A stretch of 60,447 nt of DNA, taken from contig CAZCXI010000001.1 of assembly GCA_964502635.1 (NCBI GenBank), positions 1 through 60,447 of the forward strand. The letters run 5' to 3'. This document shows, piece after piece, positions 92 through 56,507 of this stretch. The stretch is from an uncultured Desulfobacterales bacterium. GTDB lineage: Bacteria > Desulfobacterota > Desulfobacteria > Desulfobacterales > C00003060. How positions within the stretch are numbered: position 1 is the first letter of the stretch; the number at the start of each line of letters is the position of its first letter. Under the pieces are notes generated by a model, which made no database searches, was not told the DNA's origin, and worked only from the letters and a program-made list of their open reading frames with translations. Position numbers and translations under genes: made by a program.

Positions 92-214
92 ATTTTAGGA
101 GGACACGAATTGCCATGGCCCTGATGGATGTATCGGCATGCGACGTGGAAAGCTTGAAGGTAAGAGCTCCGCATAAAAAGCGTTCCGGCAAAAGGGCAAA
201 ATGGGGTATAGAGA

Positions 215-8094: not shown

Positions 8095-8358
8095 CGCGTG
8101 AGCGCTCTTGCGGAGGGGGCGAGCGTCCATGATTTCTTTGCCTTGATGGTGAAGGTGTTGTCGATACCTTGGTTTTGCGGCGAGCATTTGTAACGAATCA
8201 GTCGATGAGGAGGTGAAGATCCATTCTTGTCCTGAAATCAGGCCGGCAGGGATGGCGTTTTGTCACACGAATATCGTACCTTCGGCCCTCAGGGCTCTTG
8301 GCGATGCCCTGAGGGGTTTCGAGTTTAACTGGCTCATTCAGAAAAGGGAGGTAGAACC

Positions 8359-8673
8359 ATGTTGGATCTCATCAAGAAGACGATGTTGACAGGTGTAGGG
8401 TTGGCCGGTTTGACCAAGGACAAGGTCGAAAAATTGGCCAAGGAACTGGCAAAAAAGGGGAGGCTTTCCGAGCAGGAGGGAAAGAAGCTACTCGATCATC
8501 TCTCGAAGAAATCAGAGAAAGCGAGGAAGGATCTGGAGGCCCAGATAGAAAGAGTCGTAAAGAAGACCATGAAGAAGATGAATCTTGCTACACGAGAAGA
8601 TGTGTTGAAACTCACGAAACGGATAAAGAAGCTGGAGGGGGCATTGAAAGACAAAGAGGGGGCGAGGTGCTGA
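8359..8673 (+). CDS. Phasin-like small coiled-coil protein (the type commonly found upstream of ubiB)
   Basis: 104 aa, Lys/Glu-rich and helical. AGGGAGG RBS. Overlaps the ubiB start by 7 nt. Confidence 0.6.
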   Translation: MLDLIKKTMLTGVGLAGLTKDKVEKLAKELAKKGRLSEQEGKKLLDHLSKKSEKARKDLEAQIERVVKKTMKKMNLATREDVLKLTKRIKKLEGALKDKEGARC

Positions 8674-10364
8674 GCATCCGAAAAATTGGCATCATTGGTC
8701 GCACCTATCGTCATCTGAACCGCTACCGTCAGATCCTTGCGGTCCTATTCAGATACGGCTTTGGGGATCTGGTGGACGTGCTGAGGATCGAGCAGTATCT
8801 TGAAATCGGTCTTCAAATGATCTCCAGAAAAAGGCGGGAACAGGTAGAAAAACTCACGAGATCGGAAAGGGTTCGCATGGCATTGGAAGAACTCGGTCCG
8901 ACCTTTATCAAATTGGGCCAGGTGCTTTCCACGCGTCCTGACCTGGTTGCCCCGGAATTTGTAGAAGAGCTTTCAAAACTCCAGGATCATGTTCCCCCCT
9001 TTGGTTATGACGAGGTGCGGCGGATCGTTGAAGGAGAACTCGCCGGGAGCCTTGAAGACACGTTCCAGTCATTTGAGGAAACCCCTCTCGCCGCAGCGTC
9101 TATCGGCCAGGTTCACAGGGCACGGCTGAAGGATGGCGAGGACGTCATCGTCAAGGTCCAGCGTCCGGGTATCCGCAAGGTCATCGAGGTGGATTTGGAG
9201 ATCATGCTCCATTTGGCCTCGCTCATGGAGCGGCACTTAGAAGAGTTTCAGACAAACCGCCCCGTGAGAATCGTGGAGGAATTTGCTCGAACCCTTGAAA
9301 AAGAGGTAGATTACACCATCGAGGCCTCACACATAGAGCGATTTTCCCGGCAATTTATGGATGATGAGACGGTTTATGTTCCGAAGGTCTTTCGCGAGAC
9401 AACCACAGAGCGCGTTCTGACCATGGAGTATATCGACGGGGTCAAGGCCTCAGATATTGACCGCATAGAGAAAGAAGGGTTGGACAGGAAGATCATCACG
9501 GCCAGGGGAGCCGACTTGATCCTCAAACAGATATTTGATCACGGGTTCTTTCACGCAGATCCCCATCCAGGAAACATCTTTGTCCTGCCGGGTAATGTGA
9601 TCTGCTATCTCGATTTCGGCATGATGGGATCCATCGACCGGCAAACCCGGGAAGATTTTGCTGATCTGGTCCACAGCGTCGTAAAGAAAGACGAAGCGGG
9701 CGCGATGCAGGCCCTCCTGATGCTTACCCGGTATGATGAGGAGCCTGACGGGAGGCTCTTAGCCAGAGAGTTAGCAGATTTCATGGGGCAGCATCTTTAC
9801 AAGCCACTCAAAGACCTGCAAATGGAAAAGCTCCTCCAGCAGCTCGTGGAACTTATTTCTCGCTATCGTCTCCAGATGCCGCCTGATCTTTTCCTCATGT
9901 TGAAGGCATTGGCCACCGTAGAGGGCGTGGGCCTTTCGCTTGATCCGGATTTTCACATGATCAATCAAGCCGCTCCTTTTATTCGGCGCGTCAGGATGGA
10001 GCAGTTTGGTCCCAAACGCATGGCAAACGATATTGTTAAGTCCGGTGCTGAGCTTGTTCGACTTGTCCAGGAAATCCCGGGAGAACTGCGGGGGCTATTG
10101 AGGCAGATGAAACGGGGCAAGGTCAAGATGGAATTTGAGCACCGAGGGCTTGAGCCGATGCTGGCAACCCATGACCAAATCAGCAACCGGATTGCCTTTT
10201 CTATTGTCATCGCTGCCCTGATCGTCGGTTCGGCGCTTATCGTTCTTTCCAAAACCCCCCCGTTCCTGCTCGGCATCCCGGTGATCGGCATCGTTGGTTT
10301 TGTGGTGGCCGGTGTGATGGGGGTCTGGCTCCTAATAGCCATCTTGAGAAAGGGGAGGCTTTAG
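8667..10364 (+). CDS. ubiB: ABC1/UbiB-family atypical kinase
   Basis: AAASIGQVHRARLKDGEDVIVKVQRPGI and HADPHPGNIF motifs, plus two C-terminal transmembrane helices. Confidence 0.85.
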   Translation: MLSIRKIGIIGRTYRHLNRYRQILAVLFRYGFGDLVDVLRIEQYLEIGLQMISRKRREQVEKLTRSERVRMALEELGPTFIKLGQVLSTRPDLVAPEFVEELSKLQDHVPPFGYDEVRRIVEGELAGSLEDTFQSFEETPLAAASIGQVHRARLKDGEDVIVKVQRPGIRKVIEVDLEIMLHLASLMERHLEEFQTNRPVRIVEEFARTLEKEVDYTIEASHIERFSRQFMDDETVYVPKVFRETTTERVLTMEYIDGVKASDIDRIEKEGLDRKIITARGADLILKQIFDHGFFHADPHPGNIFVLPGNVICYLDFGMMGSIDRQTREDFADLVHSVVKKDEAGAMQALLMLTRYDEEPDGRLLARELADFMGQHLYKPLKDLQMEKLLQQLVELISRYRLQMPPDLFLMLKALATVEGVGLSLDPDFHMINQAAPFIRRVRMEQFGPKRMANDIVKSGAELVRLVQEIPGELRGLLRQMKRGKVKMEFEHRGLEPMLATHDQISNRIAFSIVIAALIVGSALIVLSKTPPFLLGIPVIGIVGFVVAGVMGVWLLIAILRKGRL

Positions 10365-10375
10365 CGAGTAGACGG

Positions 10376-10409
10376 AGTGAGTAAAATCGACTTTTTACGA
10401 AACCATCAA
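10376..10409. repeat. Solo terminal segment of the R1 repeat family
   Basis: agtgagtaaaatcgactttttacgaaaccatcaa is the reverse complement (1 mismatch) of 23180-23211. It contains the imperfect palindrome gtaaaa-tcgac-tttttac and sits directly after the ubiB stop. Confidence 0.6.
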
Positions 10410-10502
10410 GCTTTGTTTTTGGGATAAGTTACCTTTACGCAATATATGGGACCGTGCATGTTCGGAGGGCATCTTCATGATTCGCAGGTTGGGCTGATGA
10501 TG

Positions 10503-23161: not shown

Positions 23162-23178
23162 GGTATCCCAACATCAGG

Positions 23179-23392
23179 GTTGATGGTTTCGCAAAAAGTC
23201 GATTTTACTCATTCCGTGAACATTTAGGGGCACTTGAGATGTTCAGCTAAAATGCTAACACGCGGTGAAACTCTGCGCTCAACTCGGGCTAATGCCCTCA
23301 AACAGTAAGCATTTCTTAACGCCAGACATCTCACGTGCCTTTCTCCCAAAATGCTCAATGTCGTTCGGAAAACACTTCTTACGAGTCTGTCA
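23179..23392. repeat. Complete copy of the R1 intergenic palindromic element (MITE/REP-like)
   Basis: The left end gttgatggtttcgcaaaaagtcgattttactca recurs inverted at 10376-10409 and degenerate at 58-91. The internal arms 23213-23259 and 23304-23358 are imperfect inverted repeats. There is no ORF. Confidence 0.7.
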
Positions 23393-24268
23393 CGATTGAT
23401 CAAACTTGTTAAACTCGTCCTTGATCCGCTTGTCTATGGCAGCCATGCTTTCCTTGGCTTCAAGGGTTGCGTCCAGCGTCCGACCACCTTGCCTTGAGCC
23501 GGGCCCACGTCTTTTTTGAAAAACGATAAAACTCAATAACGCGACAAGAACGATGGAAAGGACCATGAGTATAGCCAACGGGTATGTTTGCCATGGGCTG
23601 TGCTGGACAGAATGGTTCACGGACGGACCTTGTCTGTCAGGCTCTGGCTTTGCGATCTCTCCCACAGCGGTGGCTGGTTCTCTGGGCAACGTGGCAGATC
23701 GTTTTGCCGGGTCCTGCGGAGGCCTCTGTGAATGTCCCGGAGCCTCCTGTATAGCCGGTTTATTCTTGAAGCTGCGAGGTTGTTCCAACGGCTTGTCCGC
23801 CTCCGCCACTGCCCTCTCGGAGCCCTCCTGGATCGATCCTCCGAATATGACATTCTCAGGGGGTGTTTCCATCCGGTAGATGTCTAGAACAACGCGTTCG
23901 GGGTTGGAAAGAGAAAAAGACTTGAGCCTGAAATATGGAAAAGAAAGGGTAATCTGAGCAGCCAAATGGGTGTCTCGCTGGACAAATTCAATGGTATCAA
24001 CCCGTTTGGTTGTTTCACTCGATATCTGCCGCGGCAAGGCGGTTGTGGTATCAAGAAATACCACGGAAAGCTTTCCCTTCCCTCTAACCTGAGGTTTCTC
24101 AAACACGGCTGGGCCACGGAATTCAAAGACGACTCTTGTGAACCCTTCGTGCTCGCCAATTCTAATATATCTTAATTGAGCCCCTTGAGCCGACCCAATC
24201 AGCCACGAAGACACAATACCGACCAATGAGACCGTCACGACGAGTTTGATCTTGCTCAAGGTCATCAT
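23390..24268 (-). CDS. AMIN-domain protein with a C-terminal membrane anchor
   Basis: Signal peptide, AMIN-like block (LRYIRIGEHEGFTRVVFEF...RVVLDIY), a Pro-rich linker, one transmembrane helix and a short cytoplasmic tail. Confidence 0.55.
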   Translation of the reverse strand: MMTLSKIKLVVTVSLVGIVSSWLIGSAQGAQLRYIRIGEHEGFTRVVFEFRGPAVFEKPQVRGKGKLSVVFLDTTTALPRQISSETTKRVDTIEFVQRDTHLAAQITLSFPYFRLKSFSLSNPERVVLDIYRMETPPENVIFGGSIQEGSERAVAEADKPLEQPRSFKNKPAIQEAPGHSQRPPQDPAKRSATLPREPATAVGEIAKPEPDRQGPSVNHSVQHSPWQTYPLAILMVLSIVLVALLSFIVFQKRRGPGSRQGGRTLDATLEAKESMAAIDKRIKDEFNKFDQS

Positions 24269-30781: not shown

Positions 30782-32107
30782 ATGCAGCAGAGACTAACCA
30801 TCTTAGGCCTAGCATGGGCGTTGAAGGAAGATCCCTTCTACGGCGAGGATCAGCTGGTTTTTGATATGAACCTGTGTCTGAGGCGTCAGCTCTTGCAGGC
30901 TCCCATGACCTTCAAATTCATCGGAACGCCCACAGACCTTGATGAACATTTTCCTGGTTCTGGGCACTCTGAAATACAGCGCTCAATACCCTATCAGGAC
31001 CAGTTGGAACTGATCCACACCTGGTGCGGACTTGCAAGACTGGACACCTACCGACCCAGGGACGACAGGTCCACCGGTTGGTTCGGCTGGGAATATGAAG
31101 AACGCTGCCACCTTGATTTGGAGATTGACCGAGACGACTTGAAGAAGTTTTTGAGAAATTGGAAACTTCCCCTTCCTGCTTTTTGGTTTCCCCAAGACCC
31201 TGACAATTCTCAGCGCAAAATGGCCCTTGGAGAGCCCGACAGCGAGTTGGCGTGGGATAACTTGGTTCTTCTGGGGGAAATCCAAGACGAGATAAGCGCG
31301 TGGAAGAATACAGCAGCCTCCAGTGTGACCGAGCGTGTGGAAGGGGCACGTCAGCTGTGCAGGCTTCAAAGGGAGCGGATGGCCGTTTTGAGTCATTTAA
31401 CCGGAAGGCGTGATTCCTTCAATGCCTCACTAACGGCCAGCGGTGGAATCGGCGAGCCGAATAGCTTGAGCCACCACCCTGCCGAAGCAGCGTCAAGCCC
31501 TTTTGTCTTCCGTAGCGAGGGCGATTTCTGGAACATCGTATACGATGGAAAAAGGATTCCCCCCCTTAAGAATTGTTTGGGACTGCGCTACATCGCCTTT
31601 TTGCTTGGGAGTCCCCATCAAGATATCCATGTGATGGAACTGTCGCACACAGTCAATGGCCACCAGCACGGTTGGTCAGGGGTTCCTATTGGTGTAATCA
31701 ACCAAGACCAACTAATGGCAGATGGATTGAGCCTCTCCCGCATGGGAGACGCTGGCGTGGTCCTTGATGCCAGAGCCAAGGCGGACTACAGGAAGAGGAT
31801 CAGAGATATTCAGGAGGAACTTGAGGAAGCTCAAGCCTTCAGCGACCTGCCAAAGATTTCGAAATTACAGGAGGAACTGGAATACATTGAAAAAGAGCTT
31901 GCCACCGTGGTGGGCCTTGCAGGAAAAGATCGAAAGGCAGCCGACACCAAGGAAAGAATCCGCAAGGCTGTCACCAACCGCATCCGAGGCAGCCTAAAAA
32001 AGCTTGAGAGAGCATACCCTCCTTTGGGACACCACCTTTCCAACGCCATCAAGACCGGCACCTTCTGCTCCTATTGCCCCGAAGAGTCTATCCCCTGGAG
32101 CCTGTAA
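30782..32107 (+). CDS. Hypothetical protein, two-part, with unknown function
   Basis: 441-aa ORF preceded by a visibly AT-rich region. The C-terminal half (FVFRSEGDFWNIVYDGKRIPPLKNCLGLRYIAFLL...LDARAKADYRKRIRDIQEELEEA...TGTFCSYCPE) resembles an uncharacterised module that I recall from the N-termini of large regulators. Confidence 0.55.
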   Translation: MQQRLTILGLAWALKEDPFYGEDQLVFDMNLCLRRQLLQAPMTFKFIGTPTDLDEHFPGSGHSEIQRSIPYQDQLELIHTWCGLARLDTYRPRDDRSTGWFGWEYEERCHLDLEIDRDDLKKFLRNWKLPLPAFWFPQDPDNSQRKMALGEPDSELAWDNLVLLGEIQDEISAWKNTAASSVTERVEGARQLCRLQRERMAVLSHLTGRRDSFNASLTASGGIGEPNSLSHHPAEAASSPFVFRSEGDFWNIVYDGKRIPPLKNCLGLRYIAFLLGSPHQDIHVMELSHTVNGHQHGWSGVPIGVINQDQLMADGLSLSRMGDAGVVLDARAKADYRKRIRDIQEELEEAQAFSDLPKISKLQEELEYIEKELATVVGLAGKDRKAADTKERIRKAVTNRIRGSLKKLERAYPPLGHHLSNAIKTGTFCSYCPEESIPWSL

Positions 32108-32277
32108 ATCTTAGGTATATGTATTCCGCTACACAGATTTTGGCATCGCTACAACATTCTTTGCGCCTTATCAGTAAATGGACAAAGGCTCGAGGGTCGC
32201 ACTTGCGGCCCCGGGTTCCGCCCCAGGTTTCATAGGTTCGTCAACGGAGATGCATCGCCTGGGGAAGGCTTCAAGGG

Positions 32278-32479
32278 GACCGCATGCAAAATTTGGGGGG
32301 AATGGTAGCCCGAATGAGAAAGGACCACAACACCTCGTCACTCCCCTGCCTGGGTTTTCTGATTGGGAGGTCGGTTTGGCTCAGGCCCGAGGCAGCTGAC
32401 GAAGGAGTGCAGTACTGCAAGAATTGCCTTCTGGTTCCATCCATTCACTGTCTATTCCCCCCAAATTTTGCATGCGGTC
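32278..32479. repeat. 202-bp cassette bounded by perfect 26-bp inverted repeats, containing an inverted Tat-signal mini-ORF
   Basis: gaccgcatgcaaaatttggggggaat (32278-32303) is the exact reverse complement of 32454-32479. On the minus strand the interior encodes MDGTRRQFLQYCTPSSAASGLSQTD..., which is homologous to the start of the hydrogenase small subunit at 32637. Confidence 0.8.
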
Positions 32480-32636
32480 AGGGGTTGTTGGAGAGGTTCA
32501 ACGACTCACGGGATCGTTTTTCGAAAACCAAAATGGAAAGGAGTGATGCCAAGCTTGTGATTGAGGTAAGGAGGAAAAATTTTAATGTAGCATTCAGCTG
32601 AAACTGGGTGCACGAATTGGAAGGGAGGGAGAAACA

Positions 32637-34001
32637 ATGAATTTGAGAATTACGAGAAGGCAGTTTCTACAGTATTGTACTGCCTCTGCCGCTGCCTTGG
32701 GCCTGAGCCAAACCGACCTCCTGAAGCTGGAAGAGGTTTTGGCCACACCCAACACGGGGTGTTCGAGCCCCACCCCCTCGGTGATCTGGCTTTCAGGACA
32801 GGCTTGCACGGCTTGCCAGATCTCCATGCTCAACAGGGTGGCCATGGTTACGGGGGGCTACTATGACGGTGACATGATCGATGCTCTGTATTCGACCGCA
32901 TCTCCGTTGCCGCCGCCCTATCCGCAAGCCCCCGTGGGCACGGGAACACCGGCGGACCCCGTGGGTCTGGAGCTCGATGTGGTCAAAGACGTGGCAGACT
33001 TGGTCGTTGGCGACGCGGTGAGTGCCGTGGTTCCCCAACTCCAGCCGTCCCCGGGAAGCCCGAGGGCAGGGTGGGCGCCATTTCCCAACGGCTACATCAC
33101 CCTGGAGTGGATCAGCACTACCATGGCCGGCGCAGGCGAGCTGACCGTGCGTCATCTCCAGAGCATCGTAGAAGGGGGACCCTTTATCCTGCTTTTGGAC
33201 GGGTCAATTCCCACGGCTTCGCCAAGCGACCCCACACTGCAGACGAGAAACGAAAAGGCCTGCTTTGTTCTTGACAATGTGGACTACCCGGAATGGCCGG
33301 CCGGAACCGGTGCCAAGGTCATCAGCGCACTGAACGCCGGGCCGGTCACGCTGGCCAACTGCCTGCGATGGATATGCGACACCAACGGTGCGAACTGCCT
33401 CGCGGCCATTGCCACAGGGACTTGTTCGTCCTATGGCGGAATCCCTGCGGCCCAGGGCAGCCCCACGGGGGCTACCTCCATGGAGGCTTTCTTTGCGCAA
33501 GAAGGAATTACCACGCCGGTGGTCAATGTGCCCGGCTGTCCGCCCCACCCGGATTGGATGGTCTATCCAGTGGCCTATTATCTGATCCACAGCGCCCTGC
33601 CGGAGCTGGATCAGTGGGGAAGGCCAAAGGCGGTCTTCAGCGGTTCTTCAGATGGCGAGCCCTTCTGCTACGACTGCCCGAACAAGCCCACCCAAGGGAC
33701 TCCCGATGCGGCTCAAGAGTTGGGGGATTCGGGTTGTTTGGGCGGCCTCGGGTGCAAAGGCCCTTACACCTTTGGTGATTGCCCGGTCCGTCAGAAGAAC
33801 ACGGCAGACGACGGTACGTTGATGAACTGGTGCGTAGGGGCCCAGGGATCAGGTGCTCCGTCAGGTCACGTGGGTAGTGGTATCGGTGAAAGCCGTCATC
33901 CCTGCCAGGGATGTATCCAACCCGATTTTCCGGATTGGTCCGGGTTGACAACATTCGATCAAAAAACCAACAGAAAAATCAAGGGATTCTATAACCCATA
34001 A
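32637..34001 (+). CDS. [NiFe]-hydrogenase small subunit, Tat-exported, unusually long
   Basis: Twin-arginine signal ITRRQFLQY and Fe-S ligand contexts GQACTACQIS, GTCSSYGG, PGCPPHPDW, CYDCP, GCLGGLGCKGPYTFGDCP and HPCQGC. No C-terminal transmembrane helix. Confidence 0.85.
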   Translation: MNLRITRRQFLQYCTASAAALGLSQTDLLKLEEVLATPNTGCSSPTPSVIWLSGQACTACQISMLNRVAMVTGGYYDGDMIDALYSTASPLPPPYPQAPVGTGTPADPVGLELDVVKDVADLVVGDAVSAVVPQLQPSPGSPRAGWAPFPNGYITLEWISTTMAGAGELTVRHLQSIVEGGPFILLLDGSIPTASPSDPTLQTRNEKACFVLDNVDYPEWPAGTGAKVISALNAGPVTLANCLRWICDTNGANCLAAIATGTCSSYGGIPAAQGSPTGATSMEAFFAQEGITTPVVNVPGCPPHPDWMVYPVAYYLIHSALPELDQWGRPKAVFSGSSDGEPFCYDCPNKPTQGTPDAAQELGDSGCLGGLGCKGPYTFGDCPVRQKNTADDGTLMNWCVGAQGSGAPSGHVGSGIGESRHPCQGCIQPDFPDWSGLTTFDQKTNRKIKGFYNP

Positions 34002-34019
34002 TAAGGAGGTGAGACAGAA

Positions 34020-36266
34020 ATGGCTAAGATCGTAAAGCTTGCTCCCATAGACCGAATTGAAGGGCATCTGGATATCGAAACGGTGGTCTCCGATGCCACA
34101 AAGCTGACCACTGACGCCAAGTGTCAGGCTGTCATGTTTAGGGGCATTGAGGAGATTATGAAAAAGAGAGACCCGAGGGATGCCCCCATTATCACGCAGC
34201 GCCCCTGTGGGGTCTGCCCCACGTCCCATGGTGTGGCCTCCAGCAAGAACATCGGAGATGCCTTTGGGTTTCGATGTGACAACGACTTCGTGAACGGGCC
34301 GGATCCCATCGACGTGCCCAACAACGGCCGTCTCCTGAGGAACTTGGCGCTGGGCTGCAATTATGTCATGTCTCACTTGGTCCATTTCTACCACTTGGTG
34401 GCTCTGGACTACGTGAACGTGAACAGCACAGGGCTCATCCCCAAGGGCTTTGCCTGCCCTAACTATGACGACCGGTTCTACGCCCGGGGCATTGATCCGA
34501 CGGGCAGCCTGGGGGCACCGGCCTATACGGTAAACAATATCGGCGGCGCGGCCGGTACAGTGCCTTCGCCTGTTGTGGGGGACCTGACCGCCTACTTTGC
34601 GAGCCAGTACGTGCGGGCCCTCAAGTTCCGGCGGATGGCCCATCAGATCCATGCGCTCTTTGCGGGCAAGATGCCCCACGTGTCTAATTTCACACCGGGT
34701 GCCATGACCAATAAGCCCTACGACTCCTCTCCAACCGGGGCGGATCCGGCTGTGGTTCAGAAGTTCAGGGAAATCCTGTATGCCGGACCGGGTTATGCCC
34801 TTTCAGACAGGACCCATCCCCTGAACGGACAACCGATCACCGTGAGTAACCCCCACCCGGAGAGCATCCTCGGTTTCATCGGAAAACCCACGGACTTCTG
34901 GAATTGGGTCAACGGGGTGAGTGTCACGGGAACACCGCTGGGCGGTCCACTCGGCGGGCCCTTTGATCCTGCGGCACTACCGCTGTGGGCCCAGGTAGGA
35001 GACGGCTCGGGGACGGCGGGTACCAACTGGCAGCCCTACATCGGCACCCATCTCTTTGATGTCGTGGCCGCCGCCCATGTATTCCCCGAGTATTTCTGGA
35101 TCGGCACCGGAGTGAACCGGCATCTCGCCTGGGGCGCCTTTGAGGGCGCGGTTGGCGATGCGCCATGGATCGGGACAGGCCATGCAGACAACCGGCTCTG
35201 CACCCGATTCCGAACCCACGTCAATCCCACCACGGGGGCTGTCATCGGCTGGTATCCCGTGGACCACCTGGATTCTGTGGAAATGGTGGACAGTTCCTGG
35301 TACGACGACACCGCGGGCAAGAAGCGGCACATGTGGCAGGGCAAGACCAAGTGGAACCCGGACAAGGCCGGGGCCTACAGCTATGCCAAATCCCCGAGGT
35401 ACTACAATGCCTCTTCGGGCACGGGTCATCCCGTGGGGCACTTGCCCTATGAAGTGGGACCCCTTTCCCGGATGATGGCCAATGCCAAGTACGTGGTGGA
35501 CGATGGCGGTCTTGGAAATCCCGTGGTCTTAAATGCCGTGGTGAGCGGCGACCGGACGGGCTACTACCCGGGTATCCTCAGCGACGTGGATCAGACGCTC
35601 GTTCCCACCAATCCATGGATTGGTGGATCTGGGGTAGGAATCTTCCCGTCGGCTGGGCAAGCGCCCACCGATTTCACTGCCGGTCCCTATGGCTCGATCC
35701 TCTACGGGAATTACCTGAACGCCCTGGCGAGCCCCGCCGTTTATAAGAGCAACTATACGGGCGACGGTGTTCTCGACCGGATTGCGGCTCGGGCCTTGGA
35801 AACCTACTATGTGGCCAAGCATCTTTGGTATTGGTTCAACCAGCTCGATCCGAACGAAACATCCAATGTCACGCGACGTTACAACTGGGGCGAGGGCAAG
35901 GGCTGGAAGGAGTTCGTGCCCAAATACAGTAAAGGCGTAGGCTTGACTGAGGCCCCGCGGGGTGCTTTAGGCCACTGGATCAAGATTGGCAACAGAAAGA
36001 AAAAGAAGTTGAAGGGGAAGATCTCCAAATACCAGATCATTACCCCTACGGCCTGGCTGGTGAGTCCCAAGGTAGACGCGGGTCTGGGTGACGCCCACGG
36101 CCCCATGGAGGAATCCCTGGTTGGAACGCCCCTACAGATTTTCGACGAGCCCATTGAGCTCTTGAGAATCGTCCACTCCTTTGACCCGTGTCTCGCTTGC
36201 ACGGTGCATGTGATGACACCGAAAAAGGAGAAAGTGGCTGAGGCGATCGTCGAGCCCGCTGGCTAG
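34020..36266 (+). CDS. [NiFe]-hydrogenase large subunit, unusually long (748 aa)
   Basis: N-terminal RIEGH and RPCGVCPTSH motifs. C-terminal DPCLACTVH followed by an 18-aa extension. AAGGAGG RBS. Confidence 0.9.
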   Translation: MAKIVKLAPIDRIEGHLDIETVVSDATKLTTDAKCQAVMFRGIEEIMKKRDPRDAPIITQRPCGVCPTSHGVASSKNIGDAFGFRCDNDFVNGPDPIDVPNNGRLLRNLALGCNYVMSHLVHFYHLVALDYVNVNSTGLIPKGFACPNYDDRFYARGIDPTGSLGAPAYTVNNIGGAAGTVPSPVVGDLTAYFASQYVRALKFRRMAHQIHALFAGKMPHVSNFTPGAMTNKPYDSSPTGADPAVVQKFREILYAGPGYALSDRTHPLNGQPITVSNPHPESILGFIGKPTDFWNWVNGVSVTGTPLGGPLGGPFDPAALPLWAQVGDGSGTAGTNWQPYIGTHLFDVVAAAHVFPEYFWIGTGVNRHLAWGAFEGAVGDAPWIGTGHADNRLCTRFRTHVNPTTGAVIGWYPVDHLDSVEMVDSSWYDDTAGKKRHMWQGKTKWNPDKAGAYSYAKSPRYYNASSGTGHPVGHLPYEVGPLSRMMANAKYVVDDGGLGNPVVLNAVVSGDRTGYYPGILSDVDQTLVPTNPWIGGSGVGIFPSAGQAPTDFTAGPYGSILYGNYLNALASPAVYKSNYTGDGVLDRIAARALETYYVAKHLWYWFNQLDPNETSNVTRRYNWGEGKGWKEFVPKYSKGVGLTEAPRGALGHWIKIGNRKKKKLKGKISKYQIITPTAWLVSPKVDAGLGDAHGPMEESLVGTPLQIFDEPIELLRIVHSFDPCLACTVHVMTPKKEKVAEAIVEPAG

Positions 36267-41440: not shown

Positions 41441-41644
41441 GACCATGTTGCATACAAGGCTTGGGGAGACAGACACTGACGGCGTATGCATGTCACTAGA
41501 AGGCAATTCTTGCAGTACTGCACAACCTCCGCACCTGCTTTGGGTCTGAGCCCGACCGACCTCCTGAAGCCAGAGAAGGCACGGGCAGAACAAAATGATT
41601 GTTTCCATCCGTCAGCGCTATTCCCCCCAAACTCTGCATGCGGT
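41441..41644. repeat. Second, degenerate copy of the 32278-32479 cassette, in the opposite orientation, with an orphan Tat-signal ORF start
   Basis: attccccccaaactctgcatgcggt (41620-41644) matches 32454-32478 with 2 mismatches. The left end gaccatgttgcatacaaggcttgggga is degenerate. The interior encodes MHVTRRQFLQYCTTSAPALGLSPTDLLK on the plus strand with no hydrogenase body behind it. Confidence 0.7.
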
Positions 41645-42199
41645 TATTTGCTTTTCTTCCCCCTCCACCAAACGAGAACCCCAGAGACTCCAAAGATGAT
41701 GCAAATCCCCATCAAAGCCTTTTCGTACCTGGAAAGTGGACTTTCACCGGTCTCCCCACGTTGCTCGTTTGCTTGCAACACCAGCGCCTCGTTAACTGGC
41801 ACCCTGACCTCTAGCCGATGCCCCATTTCATCGTCCACGACCACCTTCCAATCGCCCGGCGCATCTGGGAAAAAACAGAACCGACCGTTTCTATCTGTTC
41901 TTCCCGATTGAAAAGTCAACCCTTTTGATCTTGCCATCCTCATAGTACTGGAATTGGTCCATGACCTCATCTGCATTGCTGTCGATTTCCAGCTTGATGA
42001 GCTTGCCACCCTTACCAAAGTGAGCGATCTGGTCGATCCTGCCATCTCCGGTGGTATCGCGCTTAAGGACATCTCGGCTTGCCCACCCTGATTCAGGGCG
42101 CAACGGAATCACCAAAGTGAACACAATCAACAGGGAGATAAAGTAATTCACAAAGGATGCCTCGTCAGGAGCAACAAAAAAAGCCAGGTAGCACTGCAA
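41644..42199 (-). pseudogene. Frameshifted gene for a membrane-anchored protein (DxDGDG-like motif plus Ig-like/carboxypeptidase-regulatory-like domain plus C-terminal TM)
   Basis: ORFs 41891..42199 and 41644..42072 overlap in different frames. Removing one T from the minus-strand TTTT run (plus-strand AAAA 41911-41914) gives a continuous ...EDGKIKRVDFQSGRTDRNGRFCFFPDAPGDWKVVV... reading frame. Confidence 0.6.
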
Positions 42200-42373: not shown

Positions 42374-43441
42374 TCAAGCGATTTGCAGTTTGCCCTTCGC
42401 ATCTAAGCCAATGACCTCGCCGATAATCGTCGCTGATCGCACTCCCTCATGTTTTAATTCCTCAAGGCAGGCCTCCCCCTCATCCGCACCAATGGAGATA
42501 ACCAACCCGCCTGAGGTTTGGGGATCAAAGATGAGGTCCATGAGAACCGTTTCCACGCCAGGCTTGATTTCCACCATGTGCTCACAGAAATGCCTAGTCG
42601 CATAACTTCCGGCCGGTATCAGACCCATCAAGGCATACTCCTTGGCCTCAGGAATGATCGGGATCTTGTCAGCATAGACAGCGATCTCCACATGGCTGGC
42701 TCTGGCCATTTCCAAAAGGTGTCCCCCGAGGCCAAAACCGGTCACGTCCGTACAGGCATGAGTTTTGTATTTCAGCATAATCTGTGATGCCTGGCCGTTA
42801 AGGGTCGCGGCGATCTCGATCATCGTCTCCAGCGCTTTTTCGCTAGCCAATTTCCCCTTAACGGCGGTGGCAATGATACCCGTTCCGATGGGTTTGGTCA
42901 GTATGAGTTGATCCCCGACCTCGGTACCTTGATTGGCCAGGATTTTCTGGGGATGGACAACGCCTGTCACAGAAAGGCCATACTTAAGCTCCTGATCATC
43001 CACACTGTGTCCCCCTAGCAGGACCGCACCTGCCTCGTGAATCTTTTCCAGACCCCCTCGCAGGATTTCTTTGAGGATCTCCTTAGGCATATCCGTGATT
43101 GGAAAACAGACGATGTTCATAGCGGTCAGCGGCCTGCCACCCATGGCGTAGACATCGCTTAAGGCATTGGCTGCCGCAATGCGGCCGAAGTGATAGGGGT
43201 TGTTTACGATAGGCGTAAAAAAATCGAGGGTCTGTACCAGGGCCATATCGTCGTTCAGCTTATAGACGCCGGCATCATCAGAGGTCTCTATGCCTACAAG
43301 GAGATTAGGGTGCCTAATCACGGGCAGGTCCCTCATCACCTCTTCCAGGTCCCCTGGACTCAGTTTGGCAGCTCAGCCCGATGCCCTAACCTTTTCGGTC
43401 AAGTTAATAGGGTCATCGAGGGGGCTCAACGCATCAGGCAT
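42374..43441 (-). CDS. selD: Selenide, water dikinase (selenophosphate synthetase), selenocysteine-containing form
   Basis: The 321-aa ORF carries DDAGVY, GGHSVDD and TDVTGFGL motifs. It extends upstream through an in-frame TGA (43373-43375) to ATG 43441, giving MPDALSPLDDPINLTEKVRASG-U-AAKLSPGDL, the canonical G-(C/U)-x-x-K SelD active site. Confidence 0.9.
43344..43375 (-). promoter_or_regulatory. Sec UGA codon plus candidate SECIS hairpin of selD
   Basis: UGA, then 14 nt downstream UCCAGG-GGA-CCUGGA (43358-43344), a G-rich apical loop at the distance expected for bacterial SECIS elements. Confidence 0.55.
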
Positions 43442-44336
43442 ATTTCTTGGCAGCGCACCTTCCATCGCCTTCCTTTGCTATCTCCTCCAAGACCGACTCC
43501 AAGGCCTTTGGGATCTCCTTGACTATTGCAGCCACCTGTGTTGCCGGGGTTGGATTGGCAAGGGCACCCGCCAGGCGATTCACCCTGGCAGCGATGGTCG
43601 CCGCCTGTGCCACGGGGTATCCAGCGTAGGTGAGTGCGGCCACGATGCCCGTCAGCGTATCTCCTGTGCCACCAATGGGCTCCAGGGTCGTCACGTTCGG
43701 GGTGTCAACAGCAGCCAACAGCCCGTCCTTGGTGCATATATAATCTTTCGACCCCTTGATCAATAGTGTTTTGGCAGCATTTTCCCCTTCAAATGCCCTT
43801 TTGATCAGATCAGGAACGTTCTTCTCCTCGTGAAGAATGAAACTCCGGGTGTAAAACGGGTGAGGGGCCAACTCGTCGGCCAAGAAGGCCAATTCTCCGA
43901 TGTCAGGAGTAAAAAGGTCGTAACATGGCGAAAACCCGCTCATTTTGGCCGCATACATGTAACCTGCATCGGCAATCAGCAGCGGGAGTTTGCCTCTTTC
44001 TTCCAAGGCCAACAAGATCCGGTTATGCCAGTCAACATCAGGCTGAAGGTAATGAAAGGTAACAACCTTAGCACCCATAGCTGGAAGCCGGGTCTTCAGA
44101 TGCTCGTATAGCTTTCTGCTGCCGTCTCCTACCCCCTCATCTCCTACGAGAAAACAGAAAGGCTTGGAGAGGCCAAGCGTCTCACATGCCATGGATGTGG
44201 CGGCAATCATGGCAGGTGTCCCTCGGTTGACCGACGTTTCATGGCCATCCAAAAACAAGCAATCCCCCTTCAGTGTAACCGTCCCTGAAACCAGGGGGTA
44301 ATACTTATCCGGAACCGTACCGATCAAAGCGAGCAT
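43434..44336 (-). CDS. YjeF_C-like / ribokinase-fold carbohydrate-kinase-family protein of unknown role
   Basis: GGTGDTLTG anion-hole motif near the C-terminus. 300 aa. Overlaps the selD start by 8 nt and the upstream gene by 13 nt. Confidence 0.6.
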   Translation of the reverse strand: MLALIGTVPDKYYPLVSGTVTLKGDCLFLDGHETSVNRGTPAMIAATSMACETLGLSKPFCFLVGDEGVGDGSRKLYEHLKTRLPAMGAKVVTFHYLQPDVDWHNRILLALEERGKLPLLIADAGYMYAAKMSGFSPCYDLFTPDIGELAFLADELAPHPFYTRSFILHEEKNVPDLIKRAFEGENAAKTLLIKGSKDYICTKDGLLAAVDTPNVTTLEPIGGTGDTLTGIVAALTYAGYPVAQAATIAARVNRLAGALANPTPATQVAAIVKEIPKALESVLEEIAKEGDGRCAAKKYA

Positions 44337-44857
44337 TGACGCTTTATCTCTTCATAAGCCAATTGCAGGGCATACCCGCAAAGGGTATGACCAATTTCCC
44401 TCGGAGCAGGCGACTGTCGAAGATCTTTTCCCACCAGCATGGCCCCCAGGTATGGCACATCCGGGCAACCGCCCCCGGAAATATTCACAATCTCAAGGGT
44501 CTCTTTCTCTATCGTAAGTTTCATGTTGGCCGCGCGCACCATAAGGTATTGCCCATAATCTGTTGTCTTGAACAGTTCAACCGGTTTGAGGAGCGGATCA
44601 TCCACAGGCACTGCTTCCAACGGTTGAACCTTATTAGCTTCCAGTACCCTCAAAATATTCAACTGTTCGACCAGGGGAAATTCGATCACCATGTCACAGC
44701 CGGTCCGCAGCTCGGGGGGCGGCCCCATGACACGAACCTTCCACCCCTTTTTCTCCAAAAGGGATTTGGCCTTGATCACTTCGCTGGTATTGTGAAAGGA
44801 AAGAAACCCTCGATCCGGGCTCTTTTGCTGGGAGGCAGCCCTTTTTCCAAATGCCAT
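44324..44857 (-). CDS. DUF3343-like (putative Se/S carrier) domain protein with an extra C-terminal Cys-containing half
   Basis: The N-terminal FHNTSEVIKAKSLLEKKGWKVRVMGPPPELRTGCDMVIEF fits my recollection of DUF3343. The C-terminal half contains SGGGCPDVPYL. 177 aa. Confidence 0.5.
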   Translation of the reverse strand: MAFGKRAASQQKSPDRGFLSFHNTSEVIKAKSLLEKKGWKVRVMGPPPELRTGCDMVIEFPLVEQLNILRVLEANKVQPLEAVPVDDPLLKPVELFKTTDYGQYLMVRAANMKLTIEKETLEIVNISGGGCPDVPYLGAMLVGKDLRQSPAPREIGHTLCGYALQLAYEEIKRQCSL

Positions 44858-44863
44858 GGCTCT

Positions 44864-45082
44864 TTACTCTTTCTTGATCAGGATCTTGTACCCTGTACCT
44901 GATTCGGCAACGCCCGCTACCTCCCAACCCTGGCTTTCGGCCGCACGGCTCACGTTTTCCTTTGACGTGTCCGTGTCCACCAGGACCTCAATTTCCCCTT
45001 TGTTAAGGTCCCTGATTCTATTCAAGGTCATCAGCACAGGTTGTGGGCAAGAAAGGCCGCTTGCATCAACGATTTCAGCCAT
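44864..45082 (-). CDS. TusA-like sulfur/selenium carrier
   Basis: SGLSCPQPVL motif. GGAGA RBS before ATG 45082. 72 aa. Confidence 0.8.
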   Translation of the reverse strand: MAEIVDASGLSCPQPVLMTLNRIRDLNKGEIEVLVDTDTSKENVSRAAESQGWEVAGVAESGTGYKILIKKE

Positions 45083-45099
45083 CGTAATCTCCTTCCTTG

Positions 45100-46191
45100 T
45101 TAGGCCTTTTGTCTCATGGTCAGTCCAATGAACGAGCACACCAGAAGGCCAATAATGACAGCAGCAATACCGTGAGGACCAACCCCTTTGGGTGAGCTTG
45201 CCAGCCCAAAATTGTGGGCAAAACCAGCACCAACAATCATACCCAGGACAAAGACGGCCGCATCACCATCACCTTCTCCTGCCAGGAATAACTGGCGGCC
45301 CGGGCAGCCACCGGCAAGGCAAAAGGCTAGCCCCGCCACGACCATGCCCCCGAAGTTCCAAAGCTGCATAGTGTGAGCAACGGGTTGTTTGGCAAATCCT
45401 GGATGAAACTGTCCCACAATCAGGTTGGTGAGAAAAGCGAAGGCAATCAGTGCCAGCACACCGTAGAAAAGATAAGGTATGCGAAACAAAATCAGGTCTC
45501 GAAAGGCCCCCATGGTGCAAAATCGGCTACGCTGTGCCAGAAAACCGATGGCAAGACCTATGACAAGAGAAAGTGCAATAGACGCATGCATGGCCCCCGG
45601 ACCCTTCATGCTGTAAAAAAGGATCCCGCTTTTTGGCTCCCCTTTGATCTGGGGAAAACTTAGGAGCAGCACCAGAAAGCCAAGCATGATCAGGGGCATG
45701 AGCCAGCCCACAGATACGTATGTCTTGTTGCTCCGGCCAAGGTTATATCCGCCCTTGAGGAAAAAGGTGCCGATCCATATGCCAACAATCAATCCAAGGA
45801 GGCCAAGGATGGCGTTCCCGTCACCCGCGGAAAGACGCAGCATGGCACGCCAGGGGCACCCCAAGAAAACCAGCGCCCCGATCATGGCAAAGACTCCCAG
45901 CACAAAGCGCACAATAGGAGCAGAACCAGCCCTCGGCCTGAACTCCCTGAACGCATAGGCTGCAATCAACGCCCCGAGGACAAAACCGATGATCTCAGGG
46001 CGCATGTACTGAACCACGGCCGCCCGATGGATGCCGATGGCGCCTGCGATGTCCCGTTCAAAGCAGGCCACGCACACCCCCATATTTCCCGGGTTGCCAA
46101 ATTTTTGCAACAGAGGAGCAAACACGCCAATGAATGCCCCAACAGACACGATTCCCCACCGCGTGCCCAGAAAGTTTTTGACTTGCCCCAT
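45100..46191 (-). CDS. yedE: YedE-family putative selenium/sulfur transporter
   Basis: Polytopic membrane protein with the GNPGNMGVCVACFERD motif and a second CPGRQ half-site. 363 aa. Confidence 0.75.
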   Translation of the reverse strand: MGQVKNFLGTRWGIVSVGAFIGVFAPLLQKFGNPGNMGVCVACFERDIAGAIGIHRAAVVQYMRPEIIGFVLGALIAAYAFREFRPRAGSAPIVRFVLGVFAMIGALVFLGCPWRAMLRLSAGDGNAILGLLGLIVGIWIGTFFLKGGYNLGRSNKTYVSVGWLMPLIMLGFLVLLLSFPQIKGEPKSGILFYSMKGPGAMHASIALSLVIGLAIGFLAQRSRFCTMGAFRDLILFRIPYLFYGVLALIAFAFLTNLIVGQFHPGFAKQPVAHTMQLWNFGGMVVAGLAFCLAGGCPGRQLFLAGEGDGDAAVFVLGMIVGAGFAHNFGLASSPKGVGPHGIAAVIIGLLVCSFIGLTMRQKA

Positions 46192-46984: not shown

Positions 46985-47199
46985 ATGCTTGAAAAGGTCA
47001 TAAAGAGTGATAAAGAATGGCGGAAGATACTGACAACAGAACAATACAGGATCACCCGGAAAAAGGGAACGGAAAGAGCGTTTTCTTGTGTAACCGATGT
47101 GACGCCCACCTTGGACATGTATTTCACGACGGGCCACCACCCACAGGACTTCGCTACTGCATCAACTCCGTGGCCCTGAAATTTGTTGGAACCAATTGA
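46985..47199 (+). pseudogene. msrB: Methionine-R-sulfoxide reductase B with an internal deletion and frameshift
   Basis: Frame 1 gives [34 protein letters not shown]. Frame 2 gives [33 protein letters not shown]. The roughly 60-70 codons normally between these blocks are absent (junction near 47073-47080). Confidence 0.75.
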
Positions 47200-47264
47200 G
47201 ACCTTTGAAAAACTCCTTTTTCCTTATTCGCATCGTTTCTGGTTCAGGGTATTAGGAGAAGAGC

Positions 47265-52486: not shown

Positions 52487-52554
52487 GGCAGCAATGGGGT
52501 AAGGCATTGACCTCCAGGAGCATTTTATATATGCTGATCTGTCAAAGGTCCATT

Positions 52555-52605
52555 TCGTTCACTCCGTGAACATGTTGGGCGCTCACAAGAGACTTTTTGC
52601 GCGTT
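52555..52605. repeat. Miniature remnant related to the R1 family
   Basis: cactccgtgaacatgtt resembles 23208-23224 and ctcacaagagactttttgcg resembles 61-80. Confidence 0.35.
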
Positions 52606-55529: not shown

Positions 55530-56507
55530 ATGACGGAAAAACCCAAGATTGCGCTGTATTGGTGTTCAAGCTGCGGCGGCTGCGAGGAATCCGTCGTTGA
55601 CTTGGCAGAGGATCTCTTAACGGTTGCTGCGGCTGTCGATATTGTATTTTGGCCGGTAGCCCTGGATTTCAAGTATAAGGATGTTGTCGCCCTCAAGGAT
55701 GGCGAGATCACCGCAACGCTGATCAATGGCGCCATCAGGACGGATGAACAAGAGCATATGGCCAAAATCCTGAGAAAAAAATCCAGATTGCTCTTCGCCC
55801 ACGGAAGCTGTGCACACCTTGGCGGGGTGGTGGGGCTGGCCAATTTTTACGAACGTGAAGACTTGCTGAACCGTTTATACCAAGAGGTTCCCACGATAAA
55901 CAATCCTCAGGCAATCTTACCACAACCCGAAACCATAGAATCCGGCAAAAACCTACAACTGCCGGATTTCCATGATACCGTCAAGGCGTTGGACCAGGTC
56001 GTAGAGGTGGATTACACGATCCCGGGTTGCCCCCCGACGCCAGAGCTCATCAAAGAGGCCGTGATGATGGTCCTGGAGGACCGGCTCCCGCCGAGGGGGA
56101 GCGTATTGGCGGAAAAAAAGGCACTTTGCGATACATGCCCTCGAAGAGACAGCAAGCCCGAACCATTGCGGATAAAGGAGTTCAAACGGGTCTATGAGGC
56201 GGAGTGGGACCCAACAAAGTGTTTCTTGGCTGAGGGCATTATCTGCCTTGGCCCTGCCACCAGGGGAGGGTGCAATGCACGGTGTATCAATGCCAACATG
56301 CCCTGTCGAGGTTGCTTTGGGCCCACGGACAACGTGAGGGACCAGGGCGCAAAATCTTCCTCCTTCGTCGCGTCCATCATTGATGTCACAGACAAAGAAG
56401 CGTTGGAGAAGATTGTCGATTCCATTCCTGATCCTGGCGGACTGTTCTACCGGTACGGCCTGGCCTCATCCATATTGAAGCGAAAGATGACCAGGGACGG
56501 CTCATGA
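55530..56507 (+). CDS. mvhG: Group 3c-type [NiFe]-hydrogenase small subunit (MvhG-like)
   Basis: No signal peptide. YWCSSCGGCEES, HGSCAHLGG, IPGCPP and CRGCFGP motifs. Confidence 0.8.
   Translation: MTEKPKIALYWCSSCGGCEESVVDLAEDLLTVAAAVDIVFWPVALDFKYKDVVALKDGEITATLINGAIRTDEQEHMAKILRKKSRLLFAHGSCAHLGGVVGLANFYEREDLLNRLYQEVPTINNPQAILPQPETIESGKNLQLPDFHDTVKALDQVVEVDYTIPGCPPTPELIKEAVMMVLEDRLPPRGSVLAEKKALCDTCPRRDSKPEPLRIKEFKRVYEAEWDPTKCFLAEGIICLGPATRGGCNARCINANMPCRGCFGPTDNVRDQGAKSSSFVASIIDVTDKEALEKIVDSIPDPGGLFYRYGLASSILKRKMTRDGS

Follow-up and report, generated by a model that had tools for sequence, protein, structure and literature searches.

What is a perfect 26-bp inverted repeat doing immediately upstream of a hydrogenase operon? 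The question is raised by a 60,447-nt stretch of DNA from an uncultured Desulfobacterales bacterium (assembly GCA_964502635.1, contig CAZCXI010000001.1, positions 1 to 60,447; hereafter the window), in which a 202-bp element at 32278–32479 precedes the genes of a [NiFe] hydrogenase. These encode a small subunit with a twin-arginine translocation (Tat) signal (32637–34001, + strand) and a large subunit of the Cys type (DPCLAC; Cys, not Sec; 34020–36266, + strand), both assigned with Pfam and NCBIfam. An earlier note on this DNA had read the element as an invertible promoter switch (inverton) or, equally well, as a miniature inverted-repeat transposable element (MITE). The reading favoured here, plausible if short of probable, is that the element specifies an ~200-nt structured RNA on the hydrogenase-sense strand, derived from an inverted duplication of the 5′ end of the small-subunit gene. 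Such an RNA would be a candidate post-transcriptional regulator, in which an antisense translation-initiation region is held locked in a hairpin.

Architecture and Origin of the Element

The 26-mer GACCGCATGCAAAATTTGGGGGGAAT at 32278–32303 is the exact reverse complement of 32454–32479, and the two arms enclose 150 nt, just as the earlier note had described. No match to the 26-mer with three or fewer mismatches occurred in dinucleotide-preserving shuffles of the window. The tetranucleotide AGGG lies directly at both ends of this copy, which is called copy A below. The decoy Tat-signal start seen earlier on the minus strand was found in an open reading frame (ORF) of 57 codons at 32271–32444, which reads ATG GAT GGA ACC AGA AGG CAA TTC TTG CAG TAC TGC... 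and encodes the peptide MDGTRRQFLQYCTPSSAASGLSQTDL....

The resemblance between this decoy and the genuine gene had been noticed as a shared run of 23 nt, gggcctgagccaaaccgacctcc, at the small-subunit start. The run is present in the element and in the real gene at 32699–32721, but the homology is far longer: positions 32366–32435 are complementary to 32652–32721 (70 nt, 81%), and the similarity continues into the 5′ untranslated region (UTR). In a three-way alignment, homology between the minus strand of the element and the real gene extends from about −35, across the start codon, to codon 29, and the 26-mer aligns with the UTR and Shine–Dalgarno (SD) sequence of the real gene, GGGTGCACGAATTGGAAGGGAGGGAG, at 32609–32634. 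Because the homology runs on past the start codon into the UTR, the 26-mer is a copy of the hydrogenase 5′ UTR/SD region, and in the same alignment the far arm is an inverted copy of the UTR part. The minus strand thereby presents, in order, a UTR/SD copy, a start codon with about 29 Tat-signal codons, about 60 nt of other sequence, and an inverted UTR/SD copy. Judged from this alignment, the minus strand of the element is a truncated copy of the small-subunit 5′ UTR, start codon, and Tat-signal codons, and the decoy ORF (57 aa, MDGTRRQFLQYC...) is a truncated copy of the small-subunit start. The 202-bp unit appears to have been born by palindromic (inverted) duplication of the 5′ end of the hydrogenase small-subunit gene itself, comprising roughly its first 100 bases.

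Read along the + strand, the element begins with the left arm of the closing stem (32278–32303), a sense copy of the 5′ UTR/SD (GCATGCAAAATTTGGGGGGAAT) that pairs perfectly with the right arm and whose positions 32281–32303 are identical in a sister lineage. The left side of an inner stem extension follows, together with a variable region (32304–32349); the stem is extended inward in all three copies considered here, with sequences that differ. Conserved block 2 (32350–32386) is antisense to the GLSQTDL codons of the Tat signal and contains a 32-nt run (32355–32386) identical between the lineages; it also includes 18 nt, CTGGGTTTTCTGATTGG, without a counterpart in the real gene, and is predicted to form an internal G·U-rich hairpin (helices 5 and 6). 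A variable segment (32387–32408), antisense to the hydrophobic region (h-region) of the decoy and with about 45% identity between lineages, separates it from conserved block 3, GCAGTACTGCAAGAATTGCCTTCT (32409–32432; helix 7), which is antisense to RRQFLQYC and identical in copy A, the sister-lineage copy, and a paralogue termed copy C. The right side of the inner stem extension (32433–32453) is antisense to the decoy start-codon region, and the right arm (32454–32479) is antisense to the UTR/SD copy, with a AUUCCCCCC segment able to pair with the real SD sequence GGGAGGGAG. The closing stem comprises 26–35 bp, and folding lengthens it inward through the decoy start-codon region.

From the right arm to the hydrogenase ATG, the spacer measures 157 nt (32480–32636), one less than first reported. 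It contains an 11-bp hairpin (32482–32507) followed by a U-run (32517–32521), which together form a weak terminator candidate, and it includes the conserved blocks GGAAAGGAGTGATGCC and GGGTGCAC..TTGGAAGGGAGGGAG, the latter representing the real UTR/SD. A sigma-54 promoter within GGAAAGGAGTGATGCC was considered and rejected by eye, as the GG-N10-GC spacing is off by one.

Conservation Across Assemblies and Lineages

At least 18 public contigs encode the identical small-subunit protein; ten of these (JGI and Logan, several samples) were compared with the window, and in all ten the 529-bp intergenic region is 100% identical. A diverged version of the element occupies the orthologous locus of a second, sister lineage. 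The inverted repeat is therefore not an assembly artefact, a possibility that the earlier note had allowed for.

The sister-lineage locus was recovered five times (L001, L093–L095, and L106), with the same upstream gene, position, and orientation, and with the order upstream gene, ~210 nt, element, ~213 nt, small subunit. L093–L095 were reached via a protein (P0002) with 63% identity, and L106 via a homologue of the upstream gene (P0122) with 51% identity. L001, a 1.2-kb contig from a metagenome scan for the arm, carries a homologue of the upstream gene (30782–32107) on one side and a small-subunit start, VITRREFLQY, at its other end. It was considered as a dispersed MITE copy and rejected, its flanks being those of the orthologous locus.

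A second whole element lies in the window itself. A near-copy of the 26-mer with three mismatches at 41620–41645 forms part of copy C (41443–41645, − strand), a diverged paralogue with both arms (the partner arm being degenerate), an inner extension of its own, and the same Tat fragment; it was recovered again in a metagenome contig (L002). The structured, anti-decoy strand of copy C is the minus strand of the window. Copy C begins right behind the stop of a minus-strand ORF (41644–42072), downstream of a selD/Se-carrier/YedE-like gene cluster. At both loci, the flanking genes run in the same direction as the structured strand.

The element evolves under evident constraint. Between the two lineages, only 41% of four-fold sites are identical in the small subunit and 39% in the upstream gene, so neutral sites are saturated, and intergenic DNA outside the element is barely alignable. 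Within the element, identical runs of 23 nt (left arm), 32 nt (32355–32386), 24 nt (32409–32432), and 15 nt (32446–32460) connect the lineages. Among strains of the sister lineage, 3 of 203 element positions vary, whereas the intergenic DNA around the element varies at 35 of 424 and 39 of 425 positions (Fisher p = 5e-4 and 1e-4), which corresponds to a rate 5–7 times slower in the element. The conservation of both sequence and structure exceeds the neutral expectation. Copy C keeps CTGAAGCC, as do real genes, where copy A and its orthologue have CCAATCAGAAAA; lacking the changes common to those two, copy C predates the lineage split, and it retains its arms and block 3 despite that early split. 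Conservation past saturation, slow evolution within the sister lineage, and the age of a still recognisable copy C together argue that both copies are functional, and these comparisons of sequence support with high confidence that the element has a function of some kind.

The element is not a general feature of this hydrogenase family. Seven other members fetched by protein (52–59% identity) differ in their upstream gene, have ~145 bp of intergenic DNA, and carry neither decoy nor element. Among species-genome relatives of the small subunit, only one true family member was found, in a Thermodesulfobacteriota metagenome-assembled genome (L013), and it has no decoy. In a third lineage (L107, also L108), the upstream gene is present, and neither a small-subunit gene nor a hairpin accompanies it; all that is left, in sense orientation, is part of the UTR with some ten codons (ITRRQLLQHG...stop; L107, 7600–7723), directly ahead of a 794-aa large-subunit gene (7724–10108), which may represent an orphan large subunit or a decaying operon. 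The remnant at 7600–7676 was considered as a flipped decoy and rejected, since it keeps the full-length start region of a real gene and has no arms.

Two of the sister-lineage strains, L094 (to ~2050) and L106, share 92–100% identity over a stretch that takes in the upstream gene, the element, and the first ~63 small-subunit codons, beyond which identity falls to 55–68%. On alignment, the drop indicates that the hydrogenase allele was replaced by recombination, with the breakpoint shortly past the conserved N-terminus.

Strand Asymmetry and RNA Structure

Which strand carries the structure can be read from the way in which the arms have decayed. Non-Watson–Crick positions in the closing stems of the sister copy and copy C are G·U pairs on the anti-decoy strand in seven cases and on the decoy-sense strand in one, a count that uses a re-registered copy C stem; overall, the arms of the relatives carry 2–5 mismatches of the G·U type. 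Two of the four within-lineage polymorphisms in the element fall in the stem, where they read as U·G/C–G and G·U/G–C on the anti-decoy strand. In all three copies, the anti-decoy strand is predicted to fold more stably than the decoy strand (−105.3 vs −91.3, −86.2 vs −67.1, and −86.0 vs −60.9 kcal/mol), an advantage of 14–25 kcal/mol. Since copies A and C sit on opposite genomic strands, replication-linked mutation bias cannot explain the asymmetry. Two explanations are left, selection for RNA structure on the anti-decoy strand or transcription with that strand as the non-template, and the same transcript would be implied in both cases. For copy A, the structured strand is the + strand, in the sense of the hydrogenase operon. 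Arm decay that keeps G·U pairs on one strand is, from the pattern of substitutions, a signature of RNA structure and not of recombinase sites, and it is concluded with moderate confidence that the functional molecule is a + strand RNA.

Covariation points in the same direction. In an alignment of four sequences, 94.9% of stem cells pair and five pairs have changed on both sides; of 500 shuffles, no more than 3 reached the observed covariation score, and pairing in slid controls amounts to 33–49%. The inner extensions pair best with their cognate partners (−14.6, −11.3, and −20.3 kcal/mol, compared with −4.4 to −15.9 kcal/mol for non-cognate combinations). Taken alone, the element of copy A is predicted to fold into a single long hairpin (−106.7 kcal/mol, z = −6.1). 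A scan for tRNA and tmRNA returned no match.

A Proposed Structured, Antisense-Bearing Leader RNA

When the leader is folded together with the first 45 codons, the minimum free energy (MFE) structure in both lineages is not the closed hairpin but a fold-back (−218 and −217 kcal/mol), in which the anti-Tat region lies on codons 1–30, the right-arm AUUCCCCCC lies on the real SD GGGAGGGAG, and the start codon is buried; in the MFE structure of the whole leader, the right arm pairs with 32621–32631. The predicted duplex spans the SD, the AUG, and codons 1–30 in both lineages (~32618–32727 in the window), over a complementarity of ~110 nt. The closed hairpin and the fold-back are predicted to be mutually exclusive.

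These two structures suggest how the element may work. Produced as a segment of the operon leader, or by transcription that reads through from the upstream gene, the RNA would fold co-transcriptionally into the closed hairpin, with the antisense segment locked and the hydrogenase ribosome-binding site free. The left arm, as a sense UTR copy and the perfect partner of the right arm, would act as a built-in competitor of the real UTR, that is, as a “lock” or anti-antisense segment. A perfect duplex of 26 bp is a classical substrate of RNase III. Opening or cleavage of the stem would allow the anti-SD of the right arm, together with the anti-Tat blocks, to pair with the SD, the AUG, and codons 1–30 of the small-subunit mRNA; translation would then be blocked, and the long duplex so formed would be open to degradation. 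In trans, the paralogue at 41443–41645 could act likewise. Transcription of the element, pairing in vivo in cis or in trans, the involvement of RNase III, and the direction of the regulatory effect are inferences, and only modest confidence attaches to this specific lock-and-release mechanism. For transcription of the antisense-bearing strand, the indications are indirect, namely the 7-to-1 G·U asymmetry, the more stable folding of that strand in every copy, and the matching direction of the flanking genes.

Several observations weigh against a leader of this kind. The complementarity to the real mRNA is a product of common descent and does not by itself argue that pairing has been selected. 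Decoys and neighbouring real genes show no co-evolution, and the covariation expected of a regulator and its target is not seen; block 3 is invariant, yet its target in cis differs at 6 of 24 positions in each lineage (four of the six being wobble-compatible in the window organism), while block 2 differs from the neighbouring real genes at 0–1 of 21 positions. Complementarity across the h-region has decayed in the sister lineage. The Tat-signal codons of the real genes are unusually conserved at synonymous sites throughout the family, including relatives without the element. As CTGGGTTTTCTGATTGG of block 2 has no real-gene counterpart, part of the constraint must be structural or protein-binding and not antisense. 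A small hairpin with a U-run stands 3–45 nt past the element in both lineages; if it terminates transcription, a leader in cis is impossible, and a separate RNA acting in trans remains. The covariation statistics are thin, coming from two lineages and one paralogue. Rfam gave no match at E up to 10 in 31900–32900 and none at the gathering score in the whole window, and a consensus scan of 31900–32800, which does not cover other promoter types, found no sigma-70-like promoter and no canonical terminator. Concerning block 3, it is possible that its true target is a paralogous hydrogenase whose start reads AGAAGGCAATTCTTGCAGTACTGC.

Some of these points suit a simpler structural role, in which a domesticated or relic MITE-like palindrome serves mRNA processing, stability, or termination, in the manner of Correia or repetitive extragenic palindromic (REP) elements, and the antisense content is accidental. 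This is unlikely, though it has to be taken seriously. It would account for the terminal inverted repeats of 26 bp, the length of ~200 bp, and the placement of both copies between genes in a co-directional arrangement, for the AGGG that abuts both ends of copy A, and for the occurrence at 1954–2153 of another palindrome, which is 200 bp long, unrelated in sequence, and flanked by a 5-bp repeat; the extension of block 2 beyond its gene-complementary part, the internal hairpins formed by the blocks, and the failure of the decoys to follow the sequence of their neighbour would also be expected. However, a stability hairpin has no need of internal runs of 24 and 32 nt that are invariant across saturated divergence. 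The searches turned up no more than two copies, neither the sister lineage nor copy C shows the flanking repeat, and the termini beyond CCGCATGC are not conserved.

The conserved blocks, including a 10-bp palindrome, GCAGTACTGC, could alternatively be operators on DNA for a regulator that also binds the real Tat-coding start, the upstream copy forming a second operator, for example for DNA looping. The same sequences are conserved at the nucleotide level in real genes family-wide, even where the element is missing, and block conservation is independent of complementarity to the neighbouring gene. The syntenic upstream gene has a domain common to many signal-transduction proteins, and a further conserved motif stands behind it. 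An operator would nevertheless leave the long closing stem, the G·U strand asymmetry, and the covarying inner extension unexplained, and the real gene of the window organism lacks the palindrome and has GCAGTATTGT instead. Protein binding at the DNA level is judged decidedly improbable. The structured leader RNA remains the favoured reading.

Coding Potential of the Decoy

Translation of the decoy would offer a different explanation, a Tat-signal-like peptide that could, for example, titrate a hydrogenase-specific Tat proofreading chaperone. In all three copies, an in-frame ATG stands three codons ahead of RRQFLQYC, an SD-like GGGGGG is present, and the Tat frame is open, and a frame reading IPPKFCMR through the far arm is common to copy A and its orthologue. 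The pattern of substitutions is nonetheless that of a conserved nucleotide sequence rather than of a conserved protein. The three decoys are identical at 24 of 24 positions of the RRQFLQYC codons, although real genes vary there at synonymous sites (AGA AGG CAG TTT CTA CAG TAT TGT in the window, compared with AGA CGC GAG TTT TTA CAG TAC TGC in the sister lineage); the decoys hold the family-consensus sequence, with RRQFLQYC codons identical to those of the real gene of one relative (L101).

The decoys contain the RRQFLQYC motif, but their h-region is variable and polar, and purifying selection at the protein level was not found. The decoy h-regions differ radically (TPSSAASG, ANPQLALS, and TTSAPALG, with TASAAALG as the comparison h-region), and TPSSAASG and ANPQLALS are not hydrophobic. 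The ORFs end at different lengths (57, at least 105, and 141 aa), and copy C is frameshifted, with AIPPKLCMR in another frame. When an alignment of the three decoy peptides was run against a protein database, no such protein family emerged, although the search is insensitive for queries this short and its negative outcome is weak evidence. Structural conservation, moreover, favours the opposite strand. The absence of synonymous change, the variable h-regions, the differing lengths, the frameshift in copy C, and the lack of a peptide match make a translated decoy signal peptide unlikely; the decoy ORF is probably not a functional protein, and a small-protein role for the element as a whole is hardly credible.

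Tests for an Invertible Switch or a Mobile Element

The inverton reading supposes that a recombinase encoded elsewhere flips the 150-bp cassette and so switches the leader between an antisense and a sense Tat copy. Perfect 26-bp inverted repeats around a short segment upstream of an operon recall known invertons such as fimS, hin, and the Bacteroides capsule promoters, and the presence of the same repeat family at a second locus would suit a master-recombinase regulon. Unlike those systems, the cassette shows no orientation polymorphism: in the window, the 10 further assemblies, and the 5 sister-lineage assemblies, it faces the same way with respect to the hydrogenase, although this was read from consensus assemblies, with which a minor flipped population is compatible and which a rare flipped subpopulation would escape. 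The absence of a recombinase from the window, remarked upon earlier, was borne out when the 49 ORFs of the 60 kb were scanned against Pfam, which revealed no recombinase, integrase, or transposase. No sigma-70-like promoter was found in or near the cassette by the consensus scan of 31900–32800, the arms decay as RNA stems do, and the internal sequence is constrained in a strand-specific manner. The earlier note had pointed to a Tat-signal start codon that flipping would bring into the orientation of the hydrogenase; the decoy frame ends ~70 nt past the right arm, and the decoy ORF would therefore not fuse to the hydrogenase. A DNA switch of this type is consequently very unlikely, and the case illustrates that a perfect inverted repeat upstream of an operon is insufficient for an inverton call, and that comparison of orthologues together with the G·U pattern of arm decay can tell RNA hairpins from recombination sites.

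A second, larger inverted-repeat pair exists, consisting of the decoy and the real start (32366–32452 and 32618–32727; ~70–110 nt, 81%, with a 23-nt identical core). Recombination between its members would flip the 216-bp spacer and fuse the body of the hydrogenase in frame to the UTR, SD, and start of the decoy (MDGTRRQFLQYCTPSSAASGLSQTDL...), which would make the decoy a spare 5′ cassette. The SD-like run, in-frame ATG, and intact RRQFLQYC codons of every copy would thereby be explained, and the idea fits the sister-lineage allele replacement that breaks just past the conserved N-terminus. If it were true, the swapped initiation region and signal peptide would constitute a phase-variable switch of export or expression. 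The chance that this is so is judged to be very slim.

As for the alternative of a MITE, part of the earlier proposal stands. The element has terminal inverted repeats, a length of 202 bp, no transposase (only the truncated decoy ORF lies inside), a second copy at a distance of 9 kb, and, in AGGG, a possible target duplication of 4 bp. Unlike MITEs, it consists of adjacent-gene content, is under internal constraint at an orthologous site subject to purifying selection, has termini that are not conserved in the orthologue, and shows a flanking repeat at copy A only, none being seen at the orthologous copy or copy C. Many dispersed copies and presence/absence polymorphism were not found; there are two copies in 60 kb. 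The search for further copies of the 26-mer that had been proposed yielded the near-copy in copy C and no others in the window, and an exact arm-pattern scan gave 0 matches in 185,579 GTDB species genomes and 0 in viral contigs. A metagenome arm scan returned only the orthologue and copy C, and missed JGI contigs known to carry copy A; as that collection is incomplete, the absence of more copies is not proven. A search with nhmmer over all loci fetched for comparison likewise gave no further copies. Given the AGGG flanks of copy A and the unrelated palindrome at 1954–2153, a MITE-like origin followed by domestication is possible.

The palindrome at 1954–2153 is a 200-bp unit with a perfect 21-bp inverted repeat (GAGACCTTTGAATAACCTCGG) around 158 bp, located between a radical-SAM gene and a Slp lipoprotein gene and flanked by the 5-bp direct repeat AGTTC. 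It is predicted to fold as one long hairpin with z of about −10.5 on both strands, has no Rfam match, and has a partial copy of its terminus at 47191–47213. From these features, it looks like a MITE.

Relationship to Known Regulatory Systems

For the working of the closing stem, the closest match is provided by the Correia elements of Neisseria. These Correia repeat enclosed elements (CREE), also known as NEMIS, are ~100–155 bp long and are often situated immediately upstream of genes. They have inverted repeats of 26 bp, as does the element described here, and are transcribed into mRNA as hairpins that RNase III binds and cleaves or protects, so that the expression of the adjacent gene is changed (PMC2649163). 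The element differs in that two copies were found, its interior is antisense to the start of the neighbouring gene, and it is fixed at an orthologous site under purifying selection. CREE, for their part, are mobile, occur in hundreds of copies, and contain no fragment of a host gene.

For the interior, the closest match lies with antisense RNAs directed at initiation regions and with rpoS-type leaders. MicF, an antisense small RNA encoded beside another gene, acts over the translation-initiation region of ompF mRNA, and was long suspected to be a product of duplication of the 5′ end of its target. Like these RNAs, the element is complementary to the SD, the start codon, and the early codons of its target; unlike them, it has ~110 nt of complementarity, resides in the same intergenic region as the target, is enclosed by a 26-bp stem, and is known from sequence alone. 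The rpoS leader is self-inhibitory and is opened by an anti-antisense partner (DsrA, RprA, or ArcZ). The arrangement here similarly comprises a ribosome-binding site, a sequestering leader segment, and a competitor for that segment, but the competitor, the left arm, is part of the same RNA, and no trans factor is known for the element. Because the left arm is in the same RNA and pairs perfectly, the default state of the element would be “on”.

With regard to origin, the closest match is found in eukaryotes, where young plant microRNA genes, and the hairpin RNAs of animal inverted-repeat pseudogenes, are born by inverted duplication of their target. As in young plant microRNA genes, inverted duplication of the target would have produced a fold-back RNA antisense to the parent gene; the plant and animal RNAs, however, depend on Dicer and Argonaute, and here the arms are UTR and the antisense part lies in the loop. 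Compared with all of these systems, the element would appear to be a variant of the antisense and hairpin RNA regulators and a member of none of the families considered.

A full-text literature search found nothing on antisense or inverted-repeat control of hydrogenase small-subunit genes, and to our knowledge, a fold-back duplication of a 5′ end has not been described as the origin of a riboregulator in bacterial operon leaders. If the favoured reading is true, bacteria can derive a riboregulator from a folded-back copy of the 5′ end of the regulated gene itself, and one RNA can carry both an antisense inhibitor of a ribosome-binding site and the decoy that keeps this inhibitor locked. It would also provide a handle on the regulation of divergent periplasmic [NiFe] hydrogenases in uncultured sediment Thermodesulfobacteriota-like bacteria.

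Neighbouring Genes and Other Repeats

The gene upstream of the element (30782–32107, + strand) encodes a 441-aa protein without a known domain, although its C-terminal half is common to many signal-transduction proteins, and it is syntenic with the element in the sister lineage. Directly 3′ of its stop stands a conserved motif consisting of GCTAC, 7–8 nt, a GTAGC-like sequence, GCTAC, and then TAGCGCCT. Sites of this type were located at 32128–32174 in the window, 1255–1300 in L094, 3137–3185 in L106, 7353–7425 in L107, and ~2090–2150 in L109. The motif is kept in four lineages, with or without a following hydrogenase, and it may be an operator or a small terminator hairpin of the upstream gene.

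The Tat signal of the small subunit, ITRRQFLQYCTASAAALGLSQTDLLKLEKALATP (32637–32740 and homologues), is nearly invariant among proteins that are otherwise only ~50% identical. The hydrogenase genes (32800–36266) have a G+C content of 60–67%, compared with ~50% in the flanks, and both subunits (454 and 748 aa) carry large insertions relative to standard group-1 enzymes; the contrast in G+C and the insertions are consistent with horizontal acquisition of the hydrogenase. The large subunit of the window is a single 748-aa ORF, unlike that of several relatives (L097, 3996–6425; L099, 3288–5522; L101, 3302–5758; L104, 4470–7043), where it is split into a 60–62-aa ORF, a gap of 70–160 nt, and an ORF of ~660–760 aa. 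The split calls may be due to recoding, a frameshift, or an insertion close to the N-terminus.

A second [NiFe] hydrogenase, of the cytoplasmic type, is encoded at 55530–58039, with a VhuG-like small subunit and a large subunit. It adjoins heterodisulfide-reductase-like Fe–S/FAD proteins and has neither a Tat signal nor similarity to the element.

The selenium-utilisation cluster near copy C (42374–46191, minus strand) comprises selD, a Se/S carrier protein, and a YedE-like transporter, and lies on the same strand as copy C and immediately upstream of it. A link between selenium status and hydrogenase control would be pure speculation.

Two further kinds of repeat occur in the window. A dispersed intergenic family with AAAAGTCGATTTTACTCA is represented at 1899–1937, 10372–10422, 23167–23229, and 52544–52579, including a perfect 23-nt match in inverted orientation between 1899–1921 and 10376–10398. 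The start of the window (1–94) is repeated at 23304–23397, with 73% identity over 94 nt.

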